64,000 bases of DNA, taken from IMG/VR virus record IMGVR_UViG_3300043395_001986, positions 32,001 to 96,000 of that record; one strand, given 5' to 3'. The position numbers were made by a program, and so were the translations under genes. The notes beneath the pieces were generated by a model. It saw nothing but the letters and a program-made list of their open reading frames with translations. It was not told the DNA's origin and searched no databases. Numbering within the stretch: the stretch's first letter is position 1; each line of letters begins with the position of its first letter. Source of the DNA: a virus (lineage: Duplodnaviria; Heunggongvirae; Uroviricota; Caudoviricetes). Below, piece after piece: positions 5,573 through 27,355 of this stretch.

Positions 5573-6661
5573 ATGTACACATTCATTACAGCATCTAAAG
5601 ATGCAGCTATATATAACGAAGAATCATACCAAAATACAGGATATGATGAAATATTAGAAGTTGGTGCATACATTGTAGATGTTACTAAATATAAAACTCG
5701 TTCTTTAATTAAGTTTGAAACATCACATATATCACAATCATTAGCAATATATAATGCACAATCTGCATCATCATTATTTACCGCATCTTTATTATTAAGA
5801 GCAATTGAATTTAATGAAATACCTGCTACATCTACAATATACGCATATCCCGTTTCTCAAAGTTGGGAAGAAGGTGTTGGTACATTGGTAGATAAGATTT
5901 CCACAAAAGGTGTATCTTGGTGGTATAGAAATGGTGAATCGCAAACACTTTGGCACACGGATGCAGATGATAATATCGGACAAGAATTAACAGGTTCTAT
6001 TGGAACAAGTTTAGATACAGATGGAAGAGGTGGTACCTGGTATACATCATCTTTATCAAAAACATATAGCTATAAAGTAGAAGATTTAGAAATAGATATA
6101 ACTTCATTTGTAAAAAATTGGTTAAGTGGTAGTGTTGCAAACGAAGGAATTGTACTAAAACTATTATCTGATTTAGAATCAGATGATAACGATTATGGTA
6201 AATTTAAATTCTTTTCAAAACAAACAAACACAATATATCAACCTAAATTAATATTAAAATGGGATGAAACTTTCAATGAAGGAACTGGTAGCGTTTTAGG
6301 ACAAAATTATAGAACTTTTACTTCTAATTTAAATTCAGAATACAAATTAGGACAGAGAGTAAAAATAGAAGTAAAAACAAGAGAAAAATACCCAACTACA
6401 ACATATTCTACATTTGGATATGATACATATTATAATTTACCATCTTCAAGTTACTACGAAATTATAGATAGTAAAACCGGAGATGTTATTATTCCATTTT
6501 CATCACAGTCAAAATTAAATAGAGATTCATCTTCTGCTAAAAATTATTTTTACTTAAATTTAAGTAATTTTGAAAAAGGTAGAAATTATACTATAAATGT
6601 AAAAATTGAAGAAGATTTTTCGCAACAAATATTTAATATAGGAAACTTTGATATTGTATAA
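5573..6661 (+). CDS. Putative virion beta-sandwich protein
   Basis: KDAAIY..RSLIKF..SWEEG..DITSFV..W..N.GIVLK..P.L pattern resembles DNRLRE-type carbohydrate-binding-like domains; tail-module context. Confidence 0.5.
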   Translation: MYTFITASKDAAIYNEESYQNTGYDEILEVGAYIVDVTKYKTRSLIKFETSHISQSLAIYNAQSASSLFTASLLLRAIEFNEIPATSTIYAYPVSQSWEEGVGTLVDKISTKGVSWWYRNGESQTLWHTDADDNIGQELTGSIGTSLDTDGRGGTWYTSSLSKTYSYKVEDLEIDITSFVKNWLSGSVANEGIVLKLLSDLESDDNDYGKFKFFSKQTNTIYQPKLILKWDETFNEGTGSVLGQNYRTFTSNLNSEYKLGQRVKIEVKTREKYPTTTYSTFGYDTYYNLPSSSYYEIIDSKTGDVIIPFSSQSKLNRDSSSAKNYFYLNLSNFEKGRNYTINVKIEEDFSQQIFNIGNFDIV

Positions 6662-6663
6662 AA

Positions 6664-7731
6664 TTGGAAGAGATTAAAAAAATAAACATTACAGATTCTA
6701 GTTCATCTACACTAGATGCTAAACTTATCGTTGATACATATAATGTAAACGAATTGGTTAAATCCGTTGATGTAGGTGTAAGGGAGTTAATAAAACCTTT
6801 ACCTACACCAAATTTAGAATTAATACCAAAGCCATTATATGATGAGGCATTATTAGAGATACAGGACCTAACACAAATTATAGCAACACAACAAATAGAA
6901 ATTGACAACTTAAATTCAGAAATTACAATTTTAGAAGATAAGGTTAGAACATTAGAATTTGATATAGATGATAATAAATTACAAAAAGCATTTATTGAAA
7001 ATCAGTTTCAACAAAGTGGTCTTACAATAATAGAAGTAAGACAACAAATTCAAGAATCTTTTTCCAAAGCTATAAATGAAAATATTGAAAGAGGTGCGTT
7101 GGAGGCAGAAAATGAAGGATTAATTGCACAAAAAAATGCATTAATCAAACAAATAGATACTCTAAATAATTTATTAAATCAACAAAATAGTCAAATACAA
7201 AGATTAGAAGGTCAACTATCCGCAAAAGAACAAGCGATATCAGCGGGAGGTGTTGCAACAGGACAATTATCTACATTAGTATTTGATGGAGGAGACCCTA
7301 CAAAAACTACAAATGAAGGTTTTAATATTTGCCAAGATTATGGAGATGGGTATGGTTCTACGGCTAAATATAAGAGTTTTGCACCATCAAATCCACCATG
7401 GAAAGGTTTATATAAATCGTGGGTAGATATTGTAGCTGGTCCAAAGGATATACAAGTTGATTTTGCATTTAAAGACGGTTTAAAAAATTCTCCTTGGGAT
7501 TTTGGAGTACAATTACCCGCAACAATAAAAGCAAATGAAACTTTAAGATTTAAAATGGATGCACCTTCTGGTTATTTAGGAACAATAACAGGTCAACATG
7601 GGGGTGGGTTGTTTTCACATTCACGTGCGACTGTATATGATTATGTAATGACAATTATTGCAAAAGATATTGACCAAAATGGAAAAACAGAAACAAAAGA
7701 TTTTAGGGGAAGATTATATCATCATGGATAA
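6664..7731 (+). CDS. Coiled-coil putative virion protein (TTG start)
   Basis: Long heptad-rich Q/E/L segment followed by a globular C-terminal domain. Confidence 0.55.
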   Translation: MEEIKKINITDSSSSTLDAKLIVDTYNVNELVKSVDVGVRELIKPLPTPNLELIPKPLYDEALLEIQDLTQIIATQQIEIDNLNSEITILEDKVRTLEFDIDDNKLQKAFIENQFQQSGLTIIEVRQQIQESFSKAINENIERGALEAENEGLIAQKNALIKQIDTLNNLLNQQNSQIQRLEGQLSAKEQAISAGGVATGQLSTLVFDGGDPTKTTNEGFNICQDYGDGYGSTAKYKSFAPSNPPWKGLYKSWVDIVAGPKDIQVDFAFKDGLKNSPWDFGVQLPATIKANETLRFKMDAPSGYLGTITGQHGGGLFSHSRATVYDYVMTIIAKDIDQNGKTETKDFRGRLYHHG

Positions 7732-7743
7732 TTATATTAAGTA

Positions 7744-9255
7744 ATGGCAATAACAGATTTAAAAAATATAGAAAATATAAATCTACGAACTGAAACAAAA
7801 GGTCAGTTAATAGAATCAAAAGATTTGAATATCTTTAAGAGTTCCGCTGCTGTTATTAGTCAATTTGGGCAAAGTAAAAACGATGTTATTGAATTTAGAT
7901 TATACGATAAAGCAAATAACTTACTTACTCAAAAAGATAATAAAAAAGTAAAATATATAAAATATATTGAATTTAATAACTATTTAAAAACAGGAATAGA
8001 TTCAAATGGTGAAAAAGTATATTCTGTTGATATAGAAAAATTAATATTAGATTCTGGAAATGGAAATGGAGAATATAGAGTATCTCTTAATTTTGTTAAA
8101 AACAAATTAGGAACAGATAATGAAACTGAAAAAGTATGGATTGAAGAAATATCTCCATCTAGAAAAGAAATAAGAGTTTTACCTTTATTAAAAGATGGTT
8201 CTAATTATAATTCTATAATAGAAAAAAGATACAAAAGTTTTGGAAATAATACAGCAGAGTTAAGAAGTAGTGTATCAAAGGTAACACAAAAAATTGATTC
8301 AATACAATTACAGATTACTAAAATAATAGATGATTATTTTACTTCTAAATATGGATTGAATTATGTTGACACAATTAAAAAAGATTTTGGAATAAATAAT
8401 AATTGGGATTTTGTAAAAACAAAAATACTAACAGACTTTAAAGAATCTTTATTAAATCAAATAAATGGAAAAGAATACAAATTAGGCGCACCCTCATTTG
8501 GTTCACCAATTAATCAAAAACTTGATTTTGATGAATATGAAGAATTTACTCCATATATCCAACAAAGATTAACAGAAGCAATTGATTATAATTTAAAATA
8601 TTTTGTAGAAACCAAATTCCCACCTTCTGTTCAAGAAGAAATTAATAATAGTGATGAGGTTAAGTTATTGGAAAGCTTAATTGAAAAACCATTGGTATCA
8701 AAATCTATTATAGAAGGAAAACCTGCGGTAAGAAAATTACCACCTGATACATTAATGGAATTACTAAAAGGAGTAAAAAAAGTTGATGGAGGGTTAACAA
8801 TAGATGTTACTGACCCTGCAACAGGAAAACAAATAACAATTAAAGCAACTACACCGGAAGAATTAGCATCAAAAATATCGGATATTAAACCATATAAAGC
8901 AAGTCCAAATGACCCTGCTTTACCAACAACAAATCCTGCAAGAAAAAGCATTCAGGATACAATATCTGCTGTTAATAATAAAATAGATGAAACCAAACAA
9001 CAAATCAATGATGCTATTAATAAGGCAAATGAATTAAAAGAGAAAGGTACAAAGGCAATTGCAGATGCACAAGCAGCAGCAAATAAAATAGCAGGATTAA
9101 AAGATGAAGCTTTAGGTAAGATTGGTGATTTAAAAGGAAAAGCAGATGAATTAAAAGGAAAAGCAACCGAAGGATTAAATAAAGTGAAGGGATTGTTAAA
9201 AAAACCAAAGAAAAAAATTGGTCAATCTAAATTTAAAATTCCTAAAATATTTTAA
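7744..9255 (+). CDS. Putative baseplate/tail protein with amphipathic K/A/G-rich C-terminal repeats
   Basis: EISPSRKEIR motif; C-terminal LKGKADELKGKA repeats. Confidence 0.55.
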   Translation: MAITDLKNIENINLRTETKGQLIESKDLNIFKSSAAVISQFGQSKNDVIEFRLYDKANNLLTQKDNKKVKYIKYIEFNNYLKTGIDSNGEKVYSVDIEKLILDSGNGNGEYRVSLNFVKNKLGTDNETEKVWIEEISPSRKEIRVLPLLKDGSNYNSIIEKRYKSFGNNTAELRSSVSKVTQKIDSIQLQITKIIDDYFTSKYGLNYVDTIKKDFGINNNWDFVKTKILTDFKESLLNQINGKEYKLGAPSFGSPINQKLDFDEYEEFTPYIQQRLTEAIDYNLKYFVETKFPPSVQEEINNSDEVKLLESLIEKPLVSKSIIEGKPAVRKLPPDTLMELLKGVKKVDGGLTIDVTDPATGKQITIKATTPEELASKISDIKPYKASPNDPALPTTNPARKSIQDTISAVNNKIDETKQQINDAINKANELKEKGTKAIADAQAAANKIAGLKDEALGKIGDLKGKADELKGKATEGLNKVKGLLKKPKKKIGQSKFKIPKIF

Positions 9256-9257
9256 AG

Positions 9258-9836
9258 ATGAGAACAACTGATGCATTAGACCAATTATATAATCCAACCG
9301 CTGATTTTTTAATCAGTCAATATCCATGGGTTTCTAGTTTAGAAATGGGAGCACCTTCTGCGGGTGGCTCTACTTTTGGTGGTGGAGGTGGTGGAGGTAA
9401 TATATCAATTGTACCTTCCGTGGAGCCACCATTTTACACAACACCAATAATCACACCAGAATTACCAATAACACAACTTCCAAAAATTAATCTAAAACTA
9501 ACTGGATTAAAAAATGGATTCATAAAGTATGATAATAAAGTATATTATGATGATAATACAATAGAGTTTAATGTTTTATCATCATTAGATTCTGTTACAT
9601 TAAAAGGAGAGGGAGCTAAATATGGAGAGTATTATGTTATTTCATTTGAAAACGTTTCAATAGAAGCACCTGTTAAGGATGCAATCGTATCACCACCAAC
9701 AATGGGCGGGGTAAGTAGTGGTGGAGGAGGAAGAACCGGCGGATATGTATATACTGGAGGACAGTATAATCCTGGATCACCTGGATTTAATTCAAATTTA
9801 GCAGAAAGACCTATTGACCAAAATGCACAAAAATAA
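9258..9836 (+). CDS. Hypothetical Gly/Pro-rich protein
   Basis: 192-aa ORF in operon with poly-Gly tracts. Confidence 0.5.
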   Translation: MRTTDALDQLYNPTADFLISQYPWVSSLEMGAPSAGGSTFGGGGGGGNISIVPSVEPPFYTTPIITPELPITQLPKINLKLTGLKNGFIKYDNKVYYDDNTIEFNVLSSLDSVTLKGEGAKYGEYYVISFENVSIEAPVKDAIVSPPTMGGVSSGGGGRTGGYVYTGGQYNPGSPGFNSNLAERPIDQNAQK

Positions 9837-9838
9837 AG

Positions 9839-9846
9839 TATTTATA
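9839..9846 (+). promoter_or_regulatory. Putative phage late promoter TATTTATA
   Basis: Recurrent intergenic motif upstream of structural genes. Confidence 0.5.
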
Positions 9847-9850: not shown

Positions 9851-12800
9851 ATGCCAACATATCAAGACATATTAAATTCAATAAAATTAACCAACAACCC
9901 ACAGGGTTCATTGGATGCTTTTAATAAACAATTTGGAACTAATTTGTCTCTAACAGATTTTAATAATCCAACATTAATTAATACATATTTTTCTAGTTCA
10001 GATACATTGGCAAATCCTGACTTATTAAAAACAATACAAACAACAAATACCCAAGTTGAAAAAAAGATAGTAATTAGAAGATTTTCTAAAGATGATACTT
10101 TATTAGAATCAACTACCCATAATATTGGTGATACTATAACTTTATCTTTTAATAAATTAGCAGACCCCCCTCCTATACCTGTAAGAAAGGATATAACAAT
10201 AACATTTAATTCTACATTAGATTATAAAAAAATACCAAACTCTATTGTAAAATTAAATTCAAAAAATATAGATGGAGATTATCAACAAGTAAAATTAGAA
10301 AAAGAAAAAACTGTCAAATTAAGCACATTTGCTAATTCTTTTGAAAATATAAAAATAGAAGTTGATGGTCTTGGCGATTATATTGTAAATTCTATAAAGT
10401 ATCAAAAGGTCGATAGATATGATTTAAACAATTATACAGAATCCGAATTTAATATTATAAAATCAAATTCTTTAGAACTAACCCCCAACAGTCTTTCAGA
10501 AGATTATATAGTAACATTTGATATAATTTATAATCCAGAATTATTACCTAAAATAGTATTAGATTCTCCAACAATTTCAGTTGATGTTGACGAAACATAT
10601 TTGAATAGTGGAGTTGGTGAAGATTTTTTAGCTATATTTTCTACAAAATACGCAGAAAGTTTTAAAGTAGAAACTCCAAATGGAACAAATGAATACTTGG
10701 TTAATGAAGTAACAACTACATTAAAACAACAAATTTTACAATTAAACTCACTATCCGATTTTCAAAACAAATTCGGTACAGCAAATATAATATTAACTCC
10801 ATATTCGGAAAAAGCAGGTTATGGTGCACCGGTAACATTATTAGTTACTATTGGTAAAGAATACGAATACCCTAGATTAAAACAAATTGAGTATGAAGAT
10901 TATATTTACATACCTTCTTATTCCAATAGAGATGTAAATACAACAATAACATATGAATATGTTTTAACTGATTATGTTTATGTTTATGTTTCAAACGAAG
11001 ATGATAATGGATTGGTCTATAAAGGTGGTTCAAAAGGGTCTGTAACACTTAATTATAAAGAGTTATATCAAAATGGTAAATTAAAATTCAATTCTCCAGG
11101 TAAAGCAGAAATTATAATCGTACCATACAACGTAAGAGATAGTAGAGTTATAAAAGGAGATAGAGAAAAATTTACAATAACATTTGATGAAGCAGAATAT
11201 ACAATATCAAAAGAATCATTAAAAAATGATTTATTTGCTGCCATTGCAAAAGAATTAACATTAGATTATTCAGATGACCCTAGATATTTAAATCATATTG
11301 TAGAAATAGGTGATGATAAACAATTATTAATTGCCAATTGGGATGTAGACCCTTCAAAATTCACAAATTTTAAAATAGATGAATTAGGAAATACAATACC
11401 TGATGGTGAAATTAATAATTCAATTGTAATAAGATTATATGAAGAATTGGATGGACAAATAGAAGTTCACACACCTGTATGGATTTCTAAATTAATGTCT
11501 TTGCCAATCATAACAGATGTTGTGGTTACTGGATACCAATCAATGCAGTGCCCTCCTTTACGAGCACCAAATTTTACAGCAGATGTTGATTTTGTAAAAT
11601 CAAATAGTTTAGGGTATGAGTCGTATGATGAAATAATTTTAAGTGGGTCTCAAACATCTGAACAAATAGTTCAAAAATATTTATCAAATAACAATGTAGA
11701 TGCTTCTAAAATAAATGTAGATTATAAGAGTGGTTCATTATATCTTTGGGATAATTTTGTAAAATATAGTTCGGCAAAAGAAAGAATAATTAATTTTAGA
11801 TATAAACAGGAACTAACCGAATACTACTCACATAGTGTATTTGTTTTAGATAATCATCCGAGTTCATCTCTTTTAGAATATAAATTAGAAAGAGAAACAA
11901 ATCAAAAAAAGAAAGATAATTTAGTTTCTGGATATGATGGATTTGAAAGATTTTTGACAACAGAATTATCATCTAGTGTTAGTGGTGGTAAATTTGTATC
12001 AAATTGGAGTAGTAGTGGGAGTATTTTATCATACAACCCAACCGCAACAAATTGGTATGATTTATTAGTTAATGATGCATATTTGTTTGATAAAGAAAAT
12101 AGAAACTCATTAAAAAATAATTTACCACAATATATTCAAGAAGATTCTAATTACGAAGAATTCTTATTATTCTGTGATATGATAGGTCAACATTTTGATA
12201 CAATTCATTTGTATATCAAAAATATGACACAAATAAGAAACATAAGTGAAAGATATGGTGATGGTGTACATGATGATTATTTATATGTTTACTTAAAACA
12301 ATTCGGATGGGATACTAAAAATTTAGGAAACACAAATGAATTGTGGAAATATTTCTTTGGTATAGATAAAGATGGTAATAATCCAGGAAGAACACTCGAA
12401 AATGGAGAATCATTATCGGATGGAAACGGATTTTTAAGTGGAGAAAAAGCTACTAAAAGAGTCTGGAGAAGAATTGCAAATAATATACCTTATCTATTAA
12501 AACACAAAGGTTCTAGTAGAGGTATTAAAGCATTATTAAGTTGTTATGGTGTTCCTGAATCACAATTATCTATTGTAGAATTCGGTGGACCAAATGACAT
12601 ATCAACAGAAACAACAAAATTTACATATGAAAATGTAACAGCTGCTTTGAAATTTGATACAAATACACATTTTTCAATGAGTTGGAATGGTGATGTAAAA
12701 GCAATTGAAACAAGATTTAGATTAAATGAGTTTGATGAATATGATATAATAAATGGTAATACATTTACAATAAGTTTATTAAATAGTAGTTCATTCTCAA

Positions 12801-14656
12801 CATCATCTGCTCAATATGAAAAATGGGGATGTTTGGTATTTAGTGGAAGCGGTGTTTCAGTAACATCATCACAATATCCTATATATGATGGGAAATGGCA
12901 TACATTATTAGTTCAAAACAATAATAATACAACAGAACTATATTTAGAGCATTCGGATAATGAATTTATAACACAAACCGCATCACTTAATTTTACATAT
13001 CCAACTTCGGATTGGAATAGTGGAACTTCAATTGAATTAGGATATTTTAATGGTGAATTGGATGAGGTTAAAATATGGGATGAACCATTATCTCATTCTG
13101 TATTTGAATCACATGTAATCGGACCAGAAATGATAAATGGTAACAATTACAATTCATCTACTGAAAATTTATTATTAAGACTTGATTTTGAAAGACCTCA
13201 AAATTTTAATAATGATATAACAATCAATAACATTGCACCAATAGATGTATTTCAAGATTATGTAACAATATTTGGAGCAACGCCGGTTTCATCATATCCA
13301 TATAATTTTAGTGTATATGATAGGAAACTTGTTATAGAAATACCAAATTCTGGAGCAAGTAGATTTGTAAATAATAAAGTTAGATTTGAAGAACAAACAT
13401 TAATAAATGACCTTTCTCCTTTAAAAAGAGCAACTGCTAAACAATACGACCAAGCAGCAGCCGATTCAAATAAATTAGGAATATTCTTTTCACCAAATAA
13501 AGATTTGGATTTAAGTATAGCACAATCGTTTGGTGGGATTCAATTTGATGATTATATAGGAGACCCATCAGATGATAATGAGTATGAATATAAAACATTA
13601 AAATCAATAAGAAACTATTGGTTCAAACGTATTGATTTAAATAAACGCAACATATACGATTACATAAGATTAATACGTTCATATGATAAATCATTATTTG
13701 AAAATATAAAACAAATGTTACCAGCGAGAGTAGCAACCAATATAGGATTGTTGATTGCTCCGCATATGCTAGAACGTTCAAAAGTTGATATAAATACAAA
13801 ACCACAAATAGAAAATTTATATTATAGTGGTACATATGAATACCATAATGATTATAATGTAACAATGGATGCTGATTTGTATAAGGAAGCATTGATTGGT
13901 GCTAAACAATTATTACCAACCTTCAACGCATCAGATGAAACAATAAGTGGTACTATTAATTTAGAAATAAATAAAAGTTTAGAAACTTATATTTCAAGCC
14001 TAGAAGGGACGATAACGGAAACCCAAAAAATAGATACATTTTATGCATCAAATGAATATTACACAGCAAGTATAGATGCCGGATTAAGGCAACCAACATT
14101 GTTGGGTTCTATTGGTTATCAAGATGCACAAAAAATAGTTGGAGTTGGAAGTAATTTTATAGATTATGGATTTGGAAACTATTTTACAAATGGATATTTT
14201 GATTACAAATATTATGAAAATGGAAAACTTAATCATAAAAGATATAAAGGTTCGTTAGTAACAACAACATCAAAAACATTTACAGGATTATACACCGGTT
14301 CGGAAGGTAAAACAACATTTAAGTATGGTGGTGCAAAACCTATATTTATATCTGGTTCGGTTACTGAATTGATATTACAAGAAAGTGGCTCTAATTCATT
14401 AAATGTTGGTGATGAATTTAACAAACAGATAATATCTAATGTTAAAACAATCAATGGATATTTACCAACGCATTATAAAAATGTTGGTGACTTAACAACC
14501 GGTTTAAAAAATAGTTATTATAAAGGTTCAAAACAAACAAGTAATACAACTATTGATGGAAAATCACCGGTTGAAATATTCATATCTAATCCGACTGTAT
14601 TAAGAGTTAATAAGCAAGGTAGAGTTAGTGGTGAACCAATTTTAGAAGTTGATTAA
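9851..14656 (+). CDS. Large baseplate wedge protein (gp7-like) with LamG/ConA-like domain
   Basis: LPQYI..F..MIGQHFD and YLLKHKGSSRGIKALL baseplate-type motifs; YDGKWH..FNGELDEVKIWD LamG motif. Confidence 0.65.
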   Translation: MPTYQDILNSIKLTNNPQGSLDAFNKQFGTNLSLTDFNNPTLINTYFSSSDTLANPDLLKTIQTTNTQVEKKIVIRRFSKDDTLLESTTHNIGDTITLSFNKLADPPPIPVRKDITITFNSTLDYKKIPNSIVKLNSKNIDGDYQQVKLEKEKTVKLSTFANSFENIKIEVDGLGDYIVNSIKYQKVDRYDLNNYTESEFNIIKSNSLELTPNSLSEDYIVTFDIIYNPELLPKIVLDSPTISVDVDETYLNSGVGEDFLAIFSTKYAESFKVETPNGTNEYLVNEVTTTLKQQILQLNSLSDFQNKFGTANIILTPYSEKAGYGAPVTLLVTIGKEYEYPRLKQIEYEDYIYIPSYSNRDVNTTITYEYVLTDYVYVYVSNEDDNGLVYKGGSKGSVTLNYKELYQNGKLKFNSPGKAEIIIVPYNVRDSRVIKGDREKFTITFDEAEYTISKESLKNDLFAAIAKELTLDYSDDPRYLNHIVEIGDDKQLLIANWDVDPSKFTNFKIDELGNTIPDGEINNSIVIRLYEELDGQIEVHTPVWISKLMSLPIITDVVVTGYQSMQCPPLRAPNFTADVDFVKSNSLGYESYDEIILSGSQTSEQIVQKYLSNNNVDASKINVDYKSGSLYLWDNFVKYSSAKERIINFRYKQELTEYYSHSVFVLDNHPSSSLLEYKLERETNQKKKDNLVSGYDGFERFLTTELSSSVSGGKFVSNWSSSGSILSYNPTATNWYDLLVNDAYLFDKENRNSLKNNLPQYIQEDSNYEEFLLFCDMIGQHFDTIHLYIKNMTQIRNISERYGDGVHDDYLYVYLKQFGWDTKNLGNTNELWKYFFGIDKDGNNPGRTLENGESLSDGNGFLSGEKATKRVWRRIANNIPYLLKHKGSSRGIKALLSCYGVPESQLSIVEFGGPNDISTETTKFTYENVTAALKFDTNTHFSMSWNGDVKAIETRFRLNEFDEYDIINGNTFTISLLNSSSFSTSSAQYEKWGCLVFSGSGVSVTSSQYPIYDGKWHTLLVQNNNNTTELYLEHSDNEFITQTASLNFTYPTSDWNSGTSIELGYFNGELDEVKIWDEPLSHSVFESHVIGPEMINGNNYNSSTENLLLRLDFERPQNFNNDITINNIAPIDVFQDYVTIFGATPVSSYPYNFSVYDRKLVIEIPNSGASRFVNNKVRFEEQTLINDLSPLKRATAKQYDQAAADSNKLGIFFSPNKDLDLSIAQSFGGIQFDDYIGDPSDDNEYEYKTLKSIRNYWFKRIDLNKRNIYDYIRLIRSYDKSLFENIKQMLPARVATNIGLLIAPHMLERSKVDINTKPQIENLYYSGTYEYHNDYNVTMDADLYKEALIGAKQLLPTFNASDETISGTINLEINKSLETYISSLEGTITETQKIDTFYASNEYYTASIDAGLRQPTLLGSIGYQDAQKIVGVGSNFIDYGFGNYFTNGYFDYKYYENGKLNHKRYKGSLVTTTSKTFTGLYTGSEGKTTFKYGGAKPIFISGSVTELILQESGSNSLNVGDEFNKQIISNVKTINGYLPTHYKNVGDLTTGLKNSYYKGSKQTSNTTIDGKSPVEIFISNPTVLRVNKQGRVSGEPILEVD

Positions 14657-15343: not shown

Positions 15344-16561
15344 ATGGCACAATTAGGACAAAATACGGGTACCCAACTTACAACTGATTTATCAGCGTAC
15401 CTTTTGCAACAAAAAACAAATGCAAACGGAGCAGTAGATACAACAGAGTTGGCAAGTATTATCAATAGATACTTAACAACAGGTGAACAATTAATAAGTG
15501 AGACAGTTGCCTTAACAAATCAAATTTATAAAAGATTTAATACATCTGATATTGTAACTGCAAAAACTGAAATAGTAACAACTGGATTATGGAGTAATGG
15601 AAGTGGTAGTTTAGTATCATTTTATACAGGCTCGGATTCAGATATTGCAGGACATAGTGGCTCAGCAGCATCTAAATTTTATTTTAATGTATATGGAAGT
15701 ACAAATACCGGTTCAGCAGATGTAGAATTTGCTATTGCATATGGACATTTTAATGGTAGTGGTTCTCCTGATTTAGCAGATGATGACCAATCTAAACAAG
15801 AATCAAAAGTAACATATTCTCAATATAGATTAGCACTATTAGGAACTGCAGATGCCAAATTCAGCGTTTACAGCGGTTCTACTGCAGGTGGATGGGATAC
15901 TAATGATATCTATGTAATAAACATTGCTCGTTCAAATTATAGAGAAAAATTGGATGCTGGTAATTTACAATTAACATTATCTGGTTCTAATGGAATTTAT
16001 AAATTTATTGATGATAGCGGAATGGCAGATGCAGATACAGCAAATGGCCAAAGAGTATTCAATATTATTAGTGGTTCTATAAATTTAGGAAGTGGAGTTG
16101 GCTCAACAGAATTAACACCAACTGCATCTAATCAACAAGGATTTGGATTATTCTATCCAGATGCAGGTATTATAGTATTAAACCCAGCAGCGTTATCTTC
16201 AATGGTAGGTAGTGAATTATCACCATCAGATAGTGGTGTTTCTGAATATAATCACAAAAAATTATTAAAAGCTATTCAAGGCGGAGGTGATTTCCAGGCA
16301 AGAAGAACTGAAAATGTTTCTACATCTCATTATTTTGTAAGAGTTCAAAATAGAGAATTTAATTTCTCAAATAACCCTACATTTGCAGATTCAACTGGTT
16401 CTTTCTCTCAAGATACATTCAAAACAGACCCTAAAGTTTATATTACAACAATAGGATTATATAACGATTCAAACGAACTTTTAGCAGTAGCTAAAACATC
16501 ACAACCAATCAGAAAAACTTTTGATTCAGAAGCTCTGATTAAAGTTAAATTAGATTTCTAA
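15344..16561 (+). CDS. Baseplate/tail structural protein
   Basis: C-terminal EFNFSNNPTF..YITTIGLYND.NELLAVAK; very rich in SGS/TGS. Confidence 0.6.
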   Translation: MAQLGQNTGTQLTTDLSAYLLQQKTNANGAVDTTELASIINRYLTTGEQLISETVALTNQIYKRFNTSDIVTAKTEIVTTGLWSNGSGSLVSFYTGSDSDIAGHSGSAASKFYFNVYGSTNTGSADVEFAIAYGHFNGSGSPDLADDDQSKQESKVTYSQYRLALLGTADAKFSVYSGSTAGGWDTNDIYVINIARSNYREKLDAGNLQLTLSGSNGIYKFIDDSGMADADTANGQRVFNIISGSINLGSGVGSTELTPTASNQQGFGLFYPDAGIIVLNPAALSSMVGSELSPSDSGVSEYNHKKLLKAIQGGGDFQARRTENVSTSHYFVRVQNREFNFSNNPTFADSTGSFSQDTFKTDPKVYITTIGLYNDSNELLAVAKTSQPIRKTFDSEALIKVKLDF

Positions 16562-16631: not shown

Positions 16632-18086
16632 ATGATAAAAACTATTCCACAAAGCGATATTAGAATTAGGCCGTTTAAAGTATATAAACGATTTCAACTA
16701 ACACAAGATAATTTAAGCACCGGTTCTTTATCTGGACATCAAAAATTAATTGCAAAGAAAAATGAAGTTGTTGGGGATTTACTAACACCTTCTGCTTCGT
16801 TATGGGCATCAATACATAGAATGTATTACGATGATATTTACAATCCAATAACAACTTTTGGTACTATATCAAAAAATGTAAATAATTCACCATTATTACA
16901 ATTTAGAAAATTAGAAGATAATGCAATTGTATTTACAATACCTCAAGTAAAATTTGGAGAAAAAATAAAACCAGGTTCTTTTACAATTTATGATTCGGAT
17001 AGAAATAATACATTTACGGATAGTTACAACGCCGATGGTGTTTTGTATAGTGATATAGTAGATACAACATGGTCATTATTTAATGCAGAAACTAATAAAT
17101 TCATATTTGTAGATGCTGCATTGGTTGAATATGAATTAGAATTAATTAGTTTTAATGCAGATACCGGCCTTTTAGATTTAAAATATAATGGTAATCCAGG
17201 TACATTGAAAATAAAATATTTAAATACAAACACAGGTGGTATTGTTATATTTGATGTTACACAATATACATTTGATTTTATTACAGGATTTCAAATTGCA
17301 CCAGCAGGTAATATTTTTTATGAGCATGGTATAGCAGTAGTTACTCAATTAGAAGATGTTAATACGGATTTCTTAAATTATCAAATTGATTATAAATCAA
17401 CAAAAACAATTTATGAAAATGAATATTTTATAAGCGTTGATTCGGATGAATTTAATTATTCCACAAATCCAACAGCTTATTATGAGGTAGGTGCTATAAC
17501 TGATTCATTTATTACTGGAGATAAAATAAAATATAGAATTAATGCAGGCTCTACTGCCGGTGGTTTTGTTAACTATTTGGATGATAAAGGAAGTGAACAG
17601 ACTATTTTTATTGAACCAAATAATGTATATACAATTAGAGTATCCAAATTTTATGATTATGAACCAATAAATTGGTCATTCGAAGAAATACCAGATGGTG
17701 GTTCAAATGTATTATATAAAATTCCTGGCGAACAGCGCATGATTCAAAAAGGAACATTACCGGATGGAACGGAATACGATTACAGAAGACCTTTTTCTAG
17801 AACATTTAATTCAGGTTCCAAATACATGGGTATTAATTTAACTGGCTCATTAGAAGTTAGTGGTAAATATGGATATGGTCAATGTGAAATAACAAAATCA
17901 TTTGATGGTGGTAATAGATTTGAATATACATCATCTATTGAAATTGAAAACTCTTTAACACCTTATGTAACAACAATTGGTTTATATGATGAAAACTATG
18001 ATATGATTGCTGTTGCTAAATTACCAACACCAATAAAAGTATATCCAGATTATCCTGTAAACTTTTTAGTAAGAATTGACACTTAA
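16632..18086 (+). CDS. Baseplate/tail structural protein, paralogue of 15344..16561
   Basis: Shared GNIFYEHGI/GLFYPDAGI, EFNYSTNPT and YVTTIGLYD..IAVAK motifs. Confidence 0.6.
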   Translation: MIKTIPQSDIRIRPFKVYKRFQLTQDNLSTGSLSGHQKLIAKKNEVVGDLLTPSASLWASIHRMYYDDIYNPITTFGTISKNVNNSPLLQFRKLEDNAIVFTIPQVKFGEKIKPGSFTIYDSDRNNTFTDSYNADGVLYSDIVDTTWSLFNAETNKFIFVDAALVEYELELISFNADTGLLDLKYNGNPGTLKIKYLNTNTGGIVIFDVTQYTFDFITGFQIAPAGNIFYEHGIAVVTQLEDVNTDFLNYQIDYKSTKTIYENEYFISVDSDEFNYSTNPTAYYEVGAITDSFITGDKIKYRINAGSTAGGFVNYLDDKGSEQTIFIEPNNVYTIRVSKFYDYEPINWSFEEIPDGGSNVLYKIPGEQRMIQKGTLPDGTEYDYRRPFSRTFNSGSKYMGINLTGSLEVSGKYGYGQCEITKSFDGGNRFEYTSSIEIENSLTPYVTTIGLYDENYDMIAVAKLPTPIKVYPDYPVNFLVRIDT

Positions 18087-19853: not shown

Positions 19854-22800
19854 ATGGTAGTAAAAAAGATTTTACACATAGCTGACGTACATATTCGTAA
19901 TATTAAAAGACACGAAGAGTATCGTCAGGTATTTAACAAATTGTATAAATCATTAAAAGAACAAACTGATGATAATACAATTATTTATTTGGGTGGAGAT
20001 ATTGCGCATGCAAAATTAGAAATGTCTCCTGAATTAGTTAAGGAAATTGCAGATTTTTTAACTAATTGTGCAAATATTGCTCCAACATATTTAATTACAG
20101 GTAATCACGATTGTAATATGAATAATGTTGGTAGATTAGATGCATTAACACCAATTGTTAATTCATTAAAATTACCAAATTTAGTTTACCTAAAGGATAC
20201 CGAAATAGCGGAATTTGAGAATGCTAGATTAGTATGTTTTAGCATATTTGACCAAAAAGAAAACTGGCCAAAAGCAGAAACATTAGGAAATGATAAATTA
20301 AATATTGCATTATTTCATGGTGCAGTAGATAAATCACAAACTGACATAGGATATAAAGTTTCTTCAAAGAATTTTCCTATTGAAATTTTTGATGGATATG
20401 ATTATGCTTTGTTAGGTGATATTCATAAAAGACAAATTATGCAAGAGAAAGCAGATGGTAAACCATTTGTTGCATATTGTGGCTCATTAATTCAACAAAA
20501 CCATGGAGAAACTTTAGATAAACATGGATATATGGTATGGGATTTGGAAAACCATACTTATACTTCAATAGATATTCCAAATGATTATGGTTACTATACT
20601 TTACATATCGACAACGGAATCGTACCAGATGTGGATGATATACCTAAAATTCCTCGTCTTCGTGTTTTTGTGTCTAATACTGATAGTTCTCAAATTAAAA
20701 GAGTTACTACCGAAATTAAAAAGAAATATAAGGTTGATGATTTTACAATTACAAGAACAGATACTTTATCTAAACTCAAAAGTGGTAATAGGGATGGGCA
20801 ATTGGATATCGGGAATATTACGGATGTTGAATTCCAAAATGGGTTAATAATAGATTATCTTAAACGAAATTATCCAATAGATGATGAAATGCTGGATAAA
20901 GTTGCATCTTTAAATAGAGAAACAAATAAGAAACTTAAAGATGAAGATTTGGCTAGAAATATACACTGGAAGCCAATCCGTTTTGAGTTTTCTAATATGT
21001 TTAGTTATGGTGAAGATAATATAGTTGATTTTGATAAAATGAAAGGTATTATGGGATTGTTTGCAGCTAACGCTCAAGGTAAATCTTCATTATTTGATGC
21101 CCTTTCATTTTGTATATTTGATAAATGTAGTAGAGCATTTAAAGCATCTGCTATCCTAAATAATAGAAAATCAGCATTTCGTTGTAAATTACATTTTCAG
21201 ATAAACGGAGAAAATTTCTTTATAGAAAGAATAGCAAAGACAGTTAAGAAAGGAGAAGCAGTAAAGGTTGATGTACAATTTTGGAAAGAAGATAGCGGTG
21301 AAGTTGTTGTCCTAAACGGAACAGAACGCAGAGATACTGATACTATTATTTCGCAATATCTGGGAACATACGAAGATTTCGTTTTAACTGCATTATCTTT
21401 ACAGGGTAATAACTCATTGTTTATTGATAAATCACAATCGGAGAGAAAAGATTTATTGGCTCAGTTTATGGGCATTAATATATTTGATAAATTATATAAT
21501 ATAGCAATTGAAGATACAAAAGAAGTTTCTACTTTATTAAGAAGATTTAAAAGTGAAGATTTCACATCTGAACTTGCTCAAAATGAAAAGGATTTAGAAA
21601 AATTAGAAGATGATTTTGAAGAATTGGAAATTGAGAAAGAAGGATATGAAGACAGGCAAGAAGAATTAAATGAAGAAATAGCAGAACTTGCCGCTCAATT
21701 AACACCAATTGATGGAAATCTCAATCTTAATTCTTTAACAAAATCTAAAAGTAAATTAGAAGATGAAATAGAAAATATAATTTCATTGATTTCTACAAAA
21801 GAAAATAATATTTCTATATTAGAAGGAAAGGTTCAAGAAATTTCACAATCAATAGATGATAAGAAATCATTTGGTGGAACTATTGAGATAGAAACAGCAT
21901 ATTCAAATTATCAGAAAAAACAAAAAGAATTAATCGAAGCAACAAAAGTTTATGATAATGCAAAATTACATTTAAGTTCTGCAGAAGAAAAGATTAAACA
22001 TTTGGATAATCATAAATACGACCCAAATTGTAAATTTTGTTGTGATAATGAATTTGTTAAAGATGCAATGAGAGCAAAAGAAGCATTGCCTCAATTAGAA
22101 GGAATTGTTAAGCAAGCAATGATTGATTGTGTTGGTATTCAACAAAACATAGATACAATGGAAGGTGTTGAAGAACAATATAATGAATGGAATGAACTTA
22201 AATTAAAATTTTTAAAAGGAAATTCATTAATAGATACTGCAAAAATTGAATTAGGTAGTCAAAGAACATCTTTACAACTTAAACAAAATCAATTATCTAC
22301 AATAGAAAGTGATATTGAAAGATATCATACTAATGAAGTAAGTATTCAAACCAATGAAAGATTAAATTATGAAATAGAAGTTAAAAGGGGTGAACTTGCA
22401 AATATAACAAAAGATGTAAGAGAAGTAAGTAGTAAATTAATGGAAGCAAATGGAACAATTGGCTCATTAAAATCAAAAATACAATCCATATATACAAGAA
22501 TGGAAGAGGTATCCACTTTGGAAGATAAGTTCAAAACATATGAATATTATATCGACTCGATTAAGAGAGATGGTGTTTCATATGAACTTATCTCCAAAGC
22601 TCTTCCTGTAATTGAAGGTGAGGTAAATAATATTCTACAACAAATTGTAGATTTTGGTGTTACACTTCAAATGGATGGTAAAAGTATAAATGGAAAAATT
22701 GTCTACGAAGACCAAGAGTGGCCATTGGAAATGTGTAGTGGCATGGAAAAGTTTATTAGTGGATTGGCAATTAGGGTTGCACTCATTAATGTTTGTCACC

Positions 22801-23009
22801 TTCCTCGTCCAAACTTTTTAGTAATTGATGAGGGATTTGGTACATTAGATAGTGAGAATTTAACATCTATGTTTATGTTATTTGATTATCTTAAAACTCA
22901 ATTTGATTATATAATTGTTATTTCACATTTAGACCAAATGAGAGATATTGTTGATAATTTAATTGAAATTAAGAAAACAGATGGCTTCTCCTCTATAATT
23001 TATAAGTAA
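19854..23009 (+). CDS. Fused SbcD/Mre11 (gp47) nuclease - SbcC/Rad50 (gp46) ATPase
   Basis: ADVH, GDIAH, GNHD, FHG, GDIH phosphoesterase motifs; then Walker A NAQGKSS, coiled coils, CKFC hook, CSGME signature, IDEGFGTLD, ISH. Confidence 0.93.
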   Translation: MVVKKILHIADVHIRNIKRHEEYRQVFNKLYKSLKEQTDDNTIIYLGGDIAHAKLEMSPELVKEIADFLTNCANIAPTYLITGNHDCNMNNVGRLDALTPIVNSLKLPNLVYLKDTEIAEFENARLVCFSIFDQKENWPKAETLGNDKLNIALFHGAVDKSQTDIGYKVSSKNFPIEIFDGYDYALLGDIHKRQIMQEKADGKPFVAYCGSLIQQNHGETLDKHGYMVWDLENHTYTSIDIPNDYGYYTLHIDNGIVPDVDDIPKIPRLRVFVSNTDSSQIKRVTTEIKKKYKVDDFTITRTDTLSKLKSGNRDGQLDIGNITDVEFQNGLIIDYLKRNYPIDDEMLDKVASLNRETNKKLKDEDLARNIHWKPIRFEFSNMFSYGEDNIVDFDKMKGIMGLFAANAQGKSSLFDALSFCIFDKCSRAFKASAILNNRKSAFRCKLHFQINGENFFIERIAKTVKKGEAVKVDVQFWKEDSGEVVVLNGTERRDTDTIISQYLGTYEDFVLTALSLQGNNSLFIDKSQSERKDLLAQFMGINIFDKLYNIAIEDTKEVSTLLRRFKSEDFTSELAQNEKDLEKLEDDFEELEIEKEGYEDRQEELNEEIAELAAQLTPIDGNLNLNSLTKSKSKLEDEIENIISLISTKENNISILEGKVQEISQSIDDKKSFGGTIEIETAYSNYQKKQKELIEATKVYDNAKLHLSSAEEKIKHLDNHKYDPNCKFCCDNEFVKDAMRAKEALPQLEGIVKQAMIDCVGIQQNIDTMEGVEEQYNEWNELKLKFLKGNSLIDTAKIELGSQRTSLQLKQNQLSTIESDIERYHTNEVSIQTNERLNYEIEVKRGELANITKDVREVSSKLMEANGTIGSLKSKIQSIYTRMEEVSTLEDKFKTYEYYIDSIKRDGVSYELISKALPVIEGEVNNILQQIVDFGVTLQMDGKSINGKIVYEDQEWPLEMCSGMEKFISGLAIRVALINVCHLPRPNFLVIDEGFGTLDSENLTSMFMLFDYLKTQFDYIIVISHLDQMRDIVDNLIEIKKTDGFSSIIYK

Positions 23010-23038: not shown

Positions 23039-26000
23039 ATGGCAGTAGAGAAAAAACAGGTTTTTAAACAGAATTTAAAAAGCTATAGCACATTCATCCA
23101 AGATACGGCTGCAAATTCTACCTATTTTAAAGTAACAGAATTACCAGATACATTAACAGGTGGTAAAAATGCATTCTTAATAGAAGGTTCTGATTTACTA
23201 CAATTGGGTAGTGAAATTAAAATTGAAATTTTAGATTCAACGGGTGTACCTGTTTATATAGAAGCAGCAGACGGTTATGCTACATCATCATTTGATTCAA
23301 ATGGTAATCCAATAATTACCGAATATTACGAAGGTACTTCTAAAATAGTATCAATGTATGTTTATACCGATACATCATACGGTCCTGCTCAAATTACAAT
23401 ATTAGGTGAAGCAAAATATTATTTAGACCAAAATAATATTAAACAAGAAATACCTGCAGATTGGAAAGGTGTTTATAATGTTAAATGGCAACGAAATTTA
23501 ACAATAAATCCGTCATTAGCTAATACAACAAAGGTAAGATTTTATAAAAGGCCAACTGCTAATATTACTGAAATACTTTCACCAATTTATAGAATTGAAA
23601 GTGGTTCAAAAGTAGCATCAAACGTTACGGCTTCTTTTGCAAATATTATTTTATCTCAATTAGATACCTTTGCAGGAGATGTAAAAAGAGTAAAAGTATT
23701 TAGAACATCAGCGGGCGATATATCCGATTACGATTTGATACAAGATATATATGTCGAATCAAAGGAATTATTAACTACACTTAATATAAGTGGAAGTGTT
23801 AAAGGAGAAGCGGGTTTATTGACGGCCGATACATTAAAAAATACATGGAATACTGGCTCATTAAACACATATTTAACGAGTAGTAGAATTGATAATGGAT
23901 GTAGACTTACAGGTAGTGGATATTTTACATTTACAGGTTCATTGAACATCAGTTCTACAAATGTTTATGAATTAACATTAGATGCATTTTATTCATCATC
24001 AACCGCTAGTAATTTGGGAATTTATATTAGTGGTTCTAATAATGGTGAAATTTTATTAGCATCACTAAATGGAATAACTCCTGTTAAGAATTTAGAAAAT
24101 CAATTGATATCATTTACACTATCAAATGATGAACCAAGTGCTAGTCTATATTTATCTCAATCACAAGGTGAATGGCATATAGGTAATTTAAGTTTAAAAC
24201 TAACAGAAGATACTGCATTTTCTCCAACTGAAATAAGTTTTGTTACATCAATGCCAACTGTCATTGGTAATGAGACGTATAATTTCAAATTTGAGTTTTA
24301 TGATGTAAATAATAACTATGTTCCAATATCAGTTACACAATCGGCAACATTTACTGGTGGTAATAATAATATTGGTGGCACAATTACATTAATTAGTGGT
24401 TCAACGAGTGCATTATCACAATCAGTATCTTATGATTTATGGTTCAATCCAACTGGTAGTTTAACAGCATCGGTTTCACATTCATATTCATCATCATTAG
24501 GATATACCGCAGCAGCCAGTGCGTCATTACAAAGTTCATCTTTATATATAAGTTCATCTGTTAGTGGGACAATTTCAAATGTAAGTTCATCATTAAGTAG
24601 TAGTATATCAACATCACTTTCACAATCATACGCATACACGGACGAAATTTCAGCATCTAATTTTTTAGAATTTACAGATGTTAATAGTAGAATATTCACC
24701 GATTCAACTGGATTGGTAAGTAGAACACCTTCAACCGGTGTTTCTGGTTTATATTTAGGTCAGAGTTATTTAGGTTATCACAACGGAAATGGGCTAGTTA
24801 CCGGTTGGAAAACATATATGTCTAATACTGGTAATTTCTTTTTAACATCATCACAAACAAATGGAGGATATTTAGTTTGGGATAGTGCAGCAGCAACCTT
24901 ACAAATAAAAGGTGCAATTGATATAACAGGTGGTTCAGCAAGAACTGATATAGATAACGCAGCCCTATCTGCTTCAAATGCATTTGATTCTGCAAGTTCG
25001 TATAGTGCATCAATATCCGCATCAACATTCTTTACAACAAATTTATTAGATGGTAGAATATTCACAGATTCAACGGGTAAAATAGTAAAACCACCAGTAA
25101 ATACTGCATCTAATTATGGATTATATTTAGGTTCTTCATATATGGGGTTTTATAGTGGAAGTGGTTGGAGAACCTATATGGATAATTTAGGAAAATTCTA
25201 TTTAACAGGCTCTCTAACAGATGGATATTCAAATTATTTAACGTGGGATGGTGCAGGAACATTGACTGTAGCGGGTGCAATTAATATAACAGGTGGAACG
25301 GCAAATGATAGAATTAATGGAGTAGCAGATTCCGCATCAGCAGCAAGTGCAAGTGCTTTTAATGCAAGTGGAAGTGCATTTGCAGCAGATTCAAAAATAT
25401 TCACAGATGCAAATGGTAGAATAGTAAAAGCACCTTCAACTGGTGTAGCCGGCTTATTTTTAGGAAGTTCTTATTTAGGTTATCACAACGGAGATGGTAC
25501 AGCATTAGGTTGGAAAACCTATATGGCTAATAATGGTAATTTCTTTTTAACAGGTTCAACGGGTGGTTGGTTAAAATGGGATTCAAGCGCAGGAACATTG
25601 GATATAAAAGGTTCTATTAATATCACAGGTGGAAACGCAGCAACTCAAGATTATGTAAATACTGCAACATCTTCATTATCGGGTTCAGTAGCAACATCTG
25701 TAAACGCTGCACAAACAACTGCAAATTCAGCAAATTCAGCAGCAGCTTATGCATTACAGAATGCAAACACATCTTCAATTAATTCATTAGATGATAGAAT
25801 TTTTAATGATGCTGTTGGTAAAATAAATAAAACGGCAACTCCTGGAACCGGTACTGGATTATTTTTAGACCAAAAAAAGTTAGGGTTTTATGATGGTGCA
25901 GATTGGAAAACATTTATGAGTTCTTCTGGTTTGTTTTATTTAACAGGAAGTGCAGGTGGAAACGCTTTACTATGGGATGGTGCAAACTTAATAATAAGAG

Positions 26001-27355
26001 GACAAATCAAAGTATCAGATGGAAGTGAAGTTACATCAACAACTATATCAAACGCAGCAAGTGCATTACAAAATGGTCAAACAAATAAATCTTTAGGATT
26101 AAGTGGTGGTAGTATAGGTGGGGTAACAATCGCACCATCTAGTATATATATTGGAAACGGAAATTGGGCGAATTCTGATACTGGTTTTTTCGTTAATAGT
26201 GGTGGATATTTTTCTTTAAAAGATAAACTAACATGGGATACAAATAACCTTAAAGTACAAGGTGAAATAACCGCAGATAGTGGTATAATTGGGGGATGGA
26301 CAATTGGTGGAAATAAATTATATAGAACAAATAAATTAGAATTAGATGCAGGTGCAACATACCCAGCAATTAATGTATATGGTTCAGATAACATACCAAG
26401 AGTAATTATAAATAACAGCCCAACTCTTTCATCATTAACTGGTGGTGGAGCTGGAAGTGCAAACGTAGCTCAATATTCAATTGGAAATAGTACATCTGGA
26501 GTACAAAGATATGCTCCACCAATAAGTATACCGACAGTAGCAGGAGCAGTATATAATCTTACAATTACATTTATAGAACCAGATGGTAATGAGATTTGTA
26601 ATTTTAGTCTTGATACTTCAACCGGTAATATTATTACACGAATGGATATATGGGATACTGCATTATCTACTCAATTGCAAAATATTTGGTACGATACATC
26701 AGATACCATATATAACGATTCGTCCTGGACATGGACAGATGCGGGTGGAATTTATAATAGGACAATAACAACATCTGTGGTAGGAGATGGTACTATCTTA
26801 AAATTAAGACCAGGAATAATGTATAATGGTAGTAGACAGACAGCAAGAAGCCTTGTATTCCCTGCATATTCATATAGTTACCAACAGACGGTTTCTAAAA
26901 CGGAAATTATTCCAGGCGGGATGCAAATTGTAAATAGTACAGCAGCATATTTAAAAGCAGATAGAACTGTCACCGATAGTGCAGCAACACCTTGGATGAC
27001 ATCAGCGGGAAACTGGTCACATAATGGAACATTAATAACAACATCTGATAGAAATATTAAAAATAATATAATACCAATTGATTTTGATTTGACAAAATTA
27101 AATGAAATAGATGGATATTCATATAATAAGGCAATTGATTATGATGAAGATGGTAATCCTGATACAATTATTTCTACATATGGTGTGATAGCACAAGAAA
27201 TAGAAACTATATTACCAAATGCAGTATCAACAAATACTAATACTGGAATTAAAGGAGTTGATTACAACGCGGTAACCGGTATGTTAGTATCCGCAATAAA
27301 AAAGCTATACTTAAAAGTAAATCAATTAGAAGCACAAATTAGTGGCTCAAAATAA
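23039..27355 (+). CDS. Tail fibre with internal repeats and C-terminal S74 autocleaving chaperone
   Basis: TSDRNIKNNI..YGVIAQEIE..LP.AV..VDY..L..AIK chaperone; Ser/Gly/Thr-rich repeats. Confidence 0.85.
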   Translation: MAVEKKQVFKQNLKSYSTFIQDTAANSTYFKVTELPDTLTGGKNAFLIEGSDLLQLGSEIKIEILDSTGVPVYIEAADGYATSSFDSNGNPIITEYYEGTSKIVSMYVYTDTSYGPAQITILGEAKYYLDQNNIKQEIPADWKGVYNVKWQRNLTINPSLANTTKVRFYKRPTANITEILSPIYRIESGSKVASNVTASFANIILSQLDTFAGDVKRVKVFRTSAGDISDYDLIQDIYVESKELLTTLNISGSVKGEAGLLTADTLKNTWNTGSLNTYLTSSRIDNGCRLTGSGYFTFTGSLNISSTNVYELTLDAFYSSSTASNLGIYISGSNNGEILLASLNGITPVKNLENQLISFTLSNDEPSASLYLSQSQGEWHIGNLSLKLTEDTAFSPTEISFVTSMPTVIGNETYNFKFEFYDVNNNYVPISVTQSATFTGGNNNIGGTITLISGSTSALSQSVSYDLWFNPTGSLTASVSHSYSSSLGYTAAASASLQSSSLYISSSVSGTISNVSSSLSSSISTSLSQSYAYTDEISASNFLEFTDVNSRIFTDSTGLVSRTPSTGVSGLYLGQSYLGYHNGNGLVTGWKTYMSNTGNFFLTSSQTNGGYLVWDSAAATLQIKGAIDITGGSARTDIDNAALSASNAFDSASSYSASISASTFFTTNLLDGRIFTDSTGKIVKPPVNTASNYGLYLGSSYMGFYSGSGWRTYMDNLGKFYLTGSLTDGYSNYLTWDGAGTLTVAGAINITGGTANDRINGVADSASAASASAFNASGSAFAADSKIFTDANGRIVKAPSTGVAGLFLGSSYLGYHNGDGTALGWKTYMANNGNFFLTGSTGGWLKWDSSAGTLDIKGSINITGGNAATQDYVNTATSSLSGSVATSVNAAQTTANSANSAAAYALQNANTSSINSLDDRIFNDAVGKINKTATPGTGTGLFLDQKKLGFYDGADWKTFMSSSGLFYLTGSAGGNALLWDGANLIIRGQIKVSDGSEVTSTTISNAASALQNGQTNKSLGLSGGSIGGVTIAPSSIYIGNGNWANSDTGFFVNSGGYFSLKDKLTWDTNNLKVQGEITADSGIIGGWTIGGNKLYRTNKLELDAGATYPAINVYGSDNIPRVIINNSPTLSSLTGGGAGSANVAQYSIGNSTSGVQRYAPPISIPTVAGAVYNLTITFIEPDGNEICNFSLDTSTGNIITRMDIWDTALSTQLQNIWYDTSDTIYNDSSWTWTDAGGIYNRTITTSVVGDGTILKLRPGIMYNGSRQTARSLVFPAYSYSYQQTVSKTEIIPGGMQIVNSTAAYLKADRTVTDSAATPWMTSAGNWSHNGTLITTSDRNIKNNIIPIDFDLTKLNEIDGYSYNKAIDYDEDGNPDTIISTYGVIAQEIETILPNAVSTNTNTGIKGVDYNAVTGMLVSAIKKLYLKVNQLEAQISGSK
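24689..26010 (+). repeat. Four ~115-135-aa repeats within tail fibre
   Basis: Units start RIFTDSTG (24689), RIFTDSTG (25055), KIFTDANG (25394), RIFNDAVG (25796); each has GL(Y/F)L..G..W(K/R)T(Y/F)M..G.F.LT.S..L.WD; identical 22-mer at 24766-24787 and 25471-25492. Confidence 0.85.

Follow-up and report, generated by a model that had tools for sequence, protein, structure and literature searches.

A serine tripeptide in the baseplate and tail fibre proteins of a T4-like phage

The 64,000-nt stretch of DNA analysed here (the window, G000:C1:32001-96000) belongs to G000, a 237,307-bp IMG/VR record of 30% GC that CheckV rates as 100% complete. Genes recognised in the window encode gp25-like and gp6-like wedge proteins, a T4-type portal, TerL, a prohead protease, an Mre11-Rad50 fusion and a primase, and G000 is a large aquatic T4-like phage from a clade of aquatic far-T4 myoviruses. 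No nucleotide-level match to it was found in the phage collection searched; by protein search, the nearest records were Flavobacterium phage vB_FspM_immuto (vB_FspM_immuto_2-6A, NC_055915; host, Flavobacterium sp. LMO8; hereafter immuto), Microcystis phage Mel-JY01 (PP395634) and an uncultured 484-kb phage, to all of which the portal is 47-49% identical, with Rhodothermus phage RM378 (NC_004735) more distant at 34%. Our subject is a tripeptide, [ST]-G-S and in weaker form [ST]-A-S, that recurs in five baseplate and tail fibre proteins of this window and that a sequence-only reading had proposed as an O-glycosylation acceptor site.

All five proteins are encoded on the plus strand. Directly after the gp6-like wedge protein comes a 362-aa baseplate-module protein (5573..6661) with 6 copies of [ST][GA]S where amino-acid composition predicts 1.0, three of them [ST]GS and three [ST]AS. 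A 1601-aa baseplate/fibre protein with a LamG (ConA-like) domain (9851..14656) contains 9 copies against 2.3 expected, one more than the eight first listed, and all of these lie within residues 598-1512, leaving the N-terminal 597 residues motif-free. The 405-aa outer baseplate protein (15344..16561), whose family served as the reference for comparative work, carries 10 copies against 1.8 ([ST]GS alone, 9 against 0.95). A 484-aa protein (16632..18086), which has only a 39-residue C-terminal stretch in common with the 405-aa protein, has 4 against 0.6. Finally, the 1438-aa tail fibre with its C-terminal Peptidase_S74 intramolecular chaperone (23039..27355) has 28 against 8.0 (15 [ST]GS and 13 [ST]AS), distributed over residues 188-971, with none in residues 972-1434, which include the presumed receptor-binding tip and the S74 chaperone, before a terminal ISGSK. 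The ten copies in the 405-aa protein and the ISGSK ending had both been read correctly from the sequence.

Taken together, the five proteins hold 57 motifs against 13.7 expected, and each is significant by itself in 2000 whole-protein shuffles (p <= 0.003) and in block shuffles confined to 10, 20 or 40 residues, which keep local composition (p <= 0.005). Local richness in Ser and Gly is therefore not the cause of the excess, and the global and block shuffles rule out an artefact of overall or local composition, which the sequence-only reading had named as the first thing to check. By BLAST the five proteins are mutually unrelated save for short terminal modules, and the enrichment is nevertheless common to them all.

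Internal and non-virion proteins are not enriched. Mre11-Rad50 (19854-23009), TerL (53455-55059) and the portal (56199-58022) contain no [ST][GA]S, confirming what had been judged by eye, and nearly all other open reading frames (ORFs) of the window also stand at zero. Across the genome, 13 proteins account for 237 motifs where 72.5 are expected; the remaining 270 ORFs contain 62 against 60.9. The excess is thus restricted to outer virion proteins, namely those of the baseplate, the fibres and, mildly, the sheath. Further enriched fibres lie just beyond the window (genome 100860-116825). These are rich in Ser and Ala (up to 26% and 17%, respectively), with periodic segments such as SSSV[DN]SR..LE that resemble coiled-coil shafts, and S-A-S counts come largely from them.

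Specificity of the motif and its distribution among relatives

Specificity was measured on 81 non-redundant motif-rich related loci (414 k residues). SGS was enriched 5.8-fold over composition (1578 observed, 273 expected) and TGS 5.1-fold (1138 observed, 222 expected), followed by SAS (2.9-fold) and TAS (2.7-fold). SGT (0.9), TGT, NGS (1.1), DGS (1.2), AGS, GGS, SGN, SGD, SGA and SSG all remained between 0.8 and 1.2, and NGT stood at 1.2. Among all tripeptides in the enriched set of G000, SGS, TGS and SAS were the top three (3.5-3.7-fold); permutations were depleted (SSG 0.17, SGT 0.54, SAT 0.41, ASS 0.38), as were D and N ahead of G-S. SQS, SHS and SSS, which had been counted as part of the pattern, reached just about 1.8-2.1-fold on small counts. 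S or T preceded 64% of G-S dipeptides, a preference absent for G-T, G-N and G-D. The 405-aa family showed the same selectivity: 150 representatives taken from it, 34-60% identical to the query, held 650 [ST]GS against 102 expected, with ratios of 1.5 for [ST]AS, 1.3 for [ST]GT and 1.0 for [DN]GS. Around 2713 sites, hydrophobic residues were enriched at -1 (51%) and +3 (53%) relative to a background of 34%, a moderate excess seen for aromatics too, and K, R, D, E and P were depleted.

At the DNA level, hexamers such as AGTGGT and GGTTCT occurred in frame 0 only. The motif is therefore a feature of the protein, as the sequence-only reading had held, which rules out a DNA repeat or DNA word. A special codon signal was also ruled out: the Ser codon before Gly was AGT in 74% of cases in the enriched set but also in 60% of those outside the virion genes, a genome-wide codon-pair habit. 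As a separate observation on this habit, AGT makes up 30% and TCA 39% of Ser codons overall in G000, but before Gly their shares are 60-74% and 3-7%; codons ending in A are avoided ahead of codons starting with G, possibly an avoidance of AGG (Shine-Dalgarno-like) words.

Several other trivial sources of the excess were excluded. Masking collagen-like G-x-y arrays was without effect. Low GC content does not account for it, since the excess persists at 42-44% GC and a related motif-poor clade lies at 30-39% GC. Avoidance of deamidation-prone N-G and D-G was dismissed because neither is avoided (1.08x and 1.24x). Mutagenesis by a diversity-generating retroelement was rejected by reasoning, the motif being spread across whole proteins of many families. 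A striking case of collagen-like sequence was seen in a close relative, G003, where two giant proteins of 3069 and 3729 aa (G003:C1:185836-208300, L244-L245) carry long G-S-S/G-T-S triplet arrays; the larger holds 230 [ST]GS. The Gly-Pro-Thr collagen-like repeats of Bacillus BclA are reportedly O-glycosylated.

We next consider where the trait occurs. In T4, the long and short fibres, baseplate, sheath and capsid gave a flat result (12 observed, about 19 expected), ruling out a general property of T4-type fibres, and the structural region of RM378 showed no excess (its homologue of the 405-aa protein, 24% identical, has 1 against 0.7). Immuto and Mel-JY01 exhibited the same enrichment in orthologous, syntenic baseplate/fibre modules; in the immuto orthologue of the 362-aa protein (84179-85288) we counted 5 against 0.8, with two sites positionally conserved. 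A scan with the 405-aa family recovered 80 IMG/VR loci, all at ratios of 2.7-8.6 and spanning 28-42% GC. When a motif-free homologue was used as the seed of a second scan, a motif-poor lineage emerged with syntenic baseplate modules and ratios of 0.5-1.8, one subclade (L115-L119) reaching 2-3.4. In a FastTree phylogeny of 120 orthologues, the poor and intermediate rows formed one 30-row clade and the rich rows its 90-row sister (ratios 2.7-8.6, >=4 in 82 of the 90), a split with a Shimodaira-Hasegawa-like support of 100. On this tree the trait changed essentially once. Whole genomes agreed, with ratios of 0.9-1.4 and 0-1 significant proteins in four motif-poor genomes and ratios of 2.5-3.6 and 6-10 significant proteins in three motif-rich ones. 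The sister clade (loci L113-L141, L153, L179 and L187; genomes G015-G018) has glycosyltransferase clusters of its own and no [ST]GS excess.

To locate the sites within a fold, we relied on an AlphaFold2 model of the 405-aa protein (mean predicted local distance difference test score, 70). Mapping onto a predicted structure, which had been suggested from the sequence, put every one of the ten sites either in a loop or at the end of a strand; one forms a two-residue hairpin (177-179) and one a helix N-cap. This fold had no match in the PDB by Foldseek of the model or by sequence, and PDB sequence searches matched only the C-terminal chaperone domain of the tail fibre. The family alignment contains 3-4 anchor sites, conserved in 28-71% of sequences, together with considerable turnover, 36% of motifs falling in columns where fewer than 8% of sequences have one. 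In motif-poor homologues (42-48% identity) the anchor turns read DG, DK, GG or GQ. The anchors are therefore turn positions, yet the fold has no need of S-G-S, and a fold requirement is ruled out by RM378 and the motif-poor clade, which lack the motif.

Glycosyltransferase genes in G000 and its relatives

An accessory glycan island of 20 kb (27362..47995, plus strand) directly follows the tail fibre gene. It encodes a GT2-like glycosyltransferase (GT), a methyltransferase, three GT7(N+C)-LamG fusions, a radical SAM protein, three short-chain dehydrogenase/reductase (SDR) epimerases, RmlC, a split thiamine diphosphate (ThDP) enzyme and two 2-oxoglutarate (2OG) oxygenases. No transmembrane segment was predicted in its proteins, all of which are soluble, and no flippase or polymerase gene was found among them. 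LamG is a kind of domain that the island shares with the 1601-aa baseplate protein, and the one in the GT7-LamG fusion at 33251-34708 of the window shows a weak similarity (E = 1e-4) to a protein of immuto that is annotated as virion structural (139718-140380).

A second cluster, outside the window (G000:C1:173104-179302; L013 5105-11303), follows a PD-(D/E)XK nuclease gene and has the order GT4-GT4-GT2-GT2-GT2, the three GT2 proteins being 207, 219 and 400 aa long. The GT4 pair (L013 5105-7763) matches only the generic Glycos_transf_1 model, and the first GT4 also matches a 'GT4 in conflict systems' model just above cut-off. Syntenic orthologues exist in immuto for four of the five genes (49172-59988), and in Mel-JY01 for the first three, GT4-GT4-GT2 (83441-86957). 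Homologues of the 400-aa GT2 were found in six of nine motif-rich genomes and in none of six motif-poor ones. They are absent from the complete G006 and G027 and from Mel-JY01, so that this gene would follow the motif in part only, in a pattern confounded by phylogeny.

In total, G000 encodes at least nine GTs with Pfam support. We found no lipid-carrier or export genes in this genome, nor a ThyA-family hydroxymethylase or TGT/DpdA; the lack of the last two weakens, without excluding, a role for the GTs in DNA modification.

Possible readings of the motif

The reading that we favour, to which we give a probability of roughly 0.4, is that [ST]-G-S marks surface loops for recognition by a trans-acting factor, with O-glycosylation of Ser as the leading candidate for what follows. 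The motif would be a selected tag, with [ST]-A-S as its weaker form, placed in loops and where strands end on the outward-facing proteins of the baseplate, the fibres and, mildly, the sheath; it would have arisen once at the base of a large aquatic far-T4 clade and been kept by selection. The position specificity of the motif, its presence in unrelated outer virion families, the coordinated shift of dozens of turn sites in one clade and the turnover of sites together argue for a reader acting in trans rather than for a feature intrinsic to any fold. Such a factor would be made in the infected cell, and we infer that it recognises the tag and that the modification is a sugar. A precedent exists in TibC, a cytoplasmic enzyme that adds heptose to Ser but not to Thr on the TibA beta-helix, at sites reading N-S-G-G and T-S-A-A (PMC4358343). 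This precedent and the many soluble GTs make O-glycosylation the leading candidate, and the same GTs, in a genome with neither lipid-carrier or export genes nor ThyA/TGT/DpdA, make a virion glycan plausible. The most likely factor would thus be a soluble GT that O-glycosylates one Ser before or during assembly, producing a glycan coat on the distal tail, and the GT7-LamG island would at most elaborate or vary that glycan in this strain. The marker protein of the clade has thousands of homologues; the broader claim, that sequon-directed cytoplasmic O-glycosylation of Ser coats baseplates and tail fibres across this very large group of aquatic phages, is tentative and, judged from sequence, rather doubtful.

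A number of results weigh against this proposal. No GT family that we tested tracks the motif. The GT4-GT4-GT2 triad is intact in the motif-poor G015-G018 at 31-43% identity, with the second GT4 also in G021 and G023, and the GT4 pair and the 207-aa GT2 were accordingly discarded as readers; G015 has, in addition, its own cluster of GT2, GT-A/7C, UDP-glucose dehydrogenase and epimerase genes. The island appears nearly private to G000, with no homologues in immuto or in Mel-JY01 and one partial methyltransferase as its sole match in the complete close relative G003. PF02709 (GT7C) exceeded its cut-off in two of the five motif-rich genomes checked (G000 and G006) and had no such hit in G003, Mel-JY01 and immuto, and GT-A/7C proteins occur in motif-poor genomes too. 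Profiling all G000 proteins against three motif-rich and four motif-poor genomes revealed no modifying enzyme restricted to the rich ones; the genes found only there were those for ribonucleotide reductase, DNA ligase, a MoxR ATPase, a GroES-like protein and an HNH protein. The motif is not in excess in the major capsid protein (2 against 1.3 expected). Cytoplasmic proteins of G000 are not depleted in the motif, and enzymes would therefore be hit as well if the sequon were read in the cytoplasm as a bare linear signal. Lastly, because the trait changed about once, co-occurrence amounts to a sample of about one and has little power either way.

If the proposal is right, [ST]-G-S would give virions their first described O-glycosylation sequon of the short linear kind, and its presence or absence would split sister clades like an on/off switch. 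Our full-text literature search found no published description of such a motif, and the immuto and Mel-JY01 records make no mention of it. Should the tag prove to be modified, many of the abundant phages of fresh water and the sea would have glycan-coated tails, which would matter for recognising hosts, for withstanding proteases and grazers and for the interpretation of structural proteomes from uncultured phages. Even unmodified, a 5-6-fold tripeptide excess that is position-specific, confined to the outer virion and switched between sister clades needs explaining, and within the clade the motif could help to flag exposed virion proteins from sequence. Two cultured relatives bear it, immuto and Mel-JY01, and the sister clade offers a natural negative control.

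Of the rival explanations, the one that survives best is a purely structural idiom, in which [ST]-G-S is simply the tight turn or strand end that this clade prefers, with a left-handed Gly and Ser capping and without modification. We consider it somewhat unlikely. The modelled sites at strand ends, the hairpin and the helix N-cap suit such an idiom, as do the hydrophobic flanks with their deficit of charged residues and Pro and the positionally conserved anchors, where motif-poor homologues hold classic turn formers. That no enzyme tracks the motif and that cytoplasmic proteins do not avoid it are likewise what an unmodified turn would give. However, generic beta-turn propensity would favour D or N at position 1 and T, N or D at position 3, neither of which is enriched. 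Flanks of type I'/II' turns can interchange D, N, S and T; here, though the sites are turn positions, the enrichment is limited to S/T at position 1 and to S at position 3. The idiom also leaves unexplained why at least eight unrelated families shifted jointly in one clade, and not in its sister, RM378 or T4, and why the motif's excess is absent from the non-virion proteins of the same genome.

A second alternative keeps the tag and replaces the sugar, the reader being an enzyme for another Ser modification (phosphorylation, acylation or sulfation) or an assembly chaperone, or the loops themselves binding host polysaccharide. The arguments from specificity and from the clade-wide shift apply to it equally, and there is room for it given that none of the GTs tested tracks the motif. 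Yet no candidate enzyme is kept in motif-rich genomes and absent from motif-poor ones, and a receptor-binding role sits poorly with a distal third of the tail fibre (972-1434) that is motif-free. We regard this alternative as improbable. The weakest holds that the adjacent GT7-LamG enzymes use the motif as their acceptor, as the sequence-only reading had supposed: the island's position directly after the tail fibre gene and its all-soluble products fit, but immuto, Mel-JY01 and G003, all equally enriched, lack the island apart from the G003 methyltransferase match, and motif-poor relatives carry comparable GT clusters, so that enrichment and island do not co-occur and the island as cause of a clade-wide motif appears largely refuted and very improbable. 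In architecture, GT-A plus a lectin-like domain, the GT7-LamG fusions recall animal polypeptide GalNAc-transferases. What endures of the original acceptor reading is that the motif behaves like a recognition tag and that a virion glycan is plausible; its link to the neighbouring GTs found no support.

Several known systems resemble parts of this picture. Serine-rich repeat adhesins are O-GlcNAcylated on S-x dipeptide repeats by the GT4 pair GtfA/GtfB, and the S-A-S-bearing, Ser-rich fibres (26% Ser) and the conserved GT4 gene pair are alike; here, however, the GT4 pair matches a generic model only and occurs equally in motif-poor phages, and the window motif lies in non-repetitive, beta-rich proteins. 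The general O-glycosylation motif of Bacteroidota, D-[ST]-[AILVMT], is used in the periplasm with a lipid carrier. Like it and the N-x-S/T sequon, [ST]-G-S is a three-residue linear mark on surface proteins, and Bacteroidota are the likely host phylum, but the sequence differs, NGS, NGT and DGS being unenriched. In the mycobacteriophage system of Freeman et al. 2023, as described in PMC12619734, glycans are located at the C-termini of capsid and tail-tube subunits. Going by that account, the two systems are alike in having phage-encoded GTs that adjoin structural genes (the island at 27362-47995 after the tail fibre) and virion proteins as proposed acceptors, and differ in that capsid, tube and portal are unenriched here and the candidate sites are internal tripeptides of baseplate and fibre proteins. 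The nearest cultured relatives, immuto and Mel-JY01, have smaller genomes than G000 and are without the GT7-LamG island.

There is also a likeness to the bacterial autotransporter heptosyltransferases (BAHT; TibC/TibA and Aah/AIDA-I), where a soluble cytoplasmic enzyme hyper-glycosylates a beta-rich surface protein on many Ser but not Thr residues, in short loops and with small neighbours. The motifs of the 405-aa model stand in loops and at strand ends, and position 3 takes Ser rather than Thr. Unlike there, the motif is [ST]-G-S and the putative substrates are virion proteins of many folds, and a GT9/BAHT reader was rejected since PF01075 had no match, and no GT9/TibC-like gene was found, in G000, immuto or RM378. 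Two minor observations concern sugar genes of relatives. In RM378, the phage without motif excess, about 2 kb separate a UDP-galactopyranose mutase-like gene (NC_004735 112985-114136) from that for the homologue of the 405-aa baseplate protein. In Mel-JY01, a 1226-aa fusion of GT4, Methyltransf_24 and GT9 (32.5 bits; PP395634 4750-8430, L012), with a weak sub-threshold match to TibC_1st, resembles a protein O-heptosyltransferase and adjoins structural genes.

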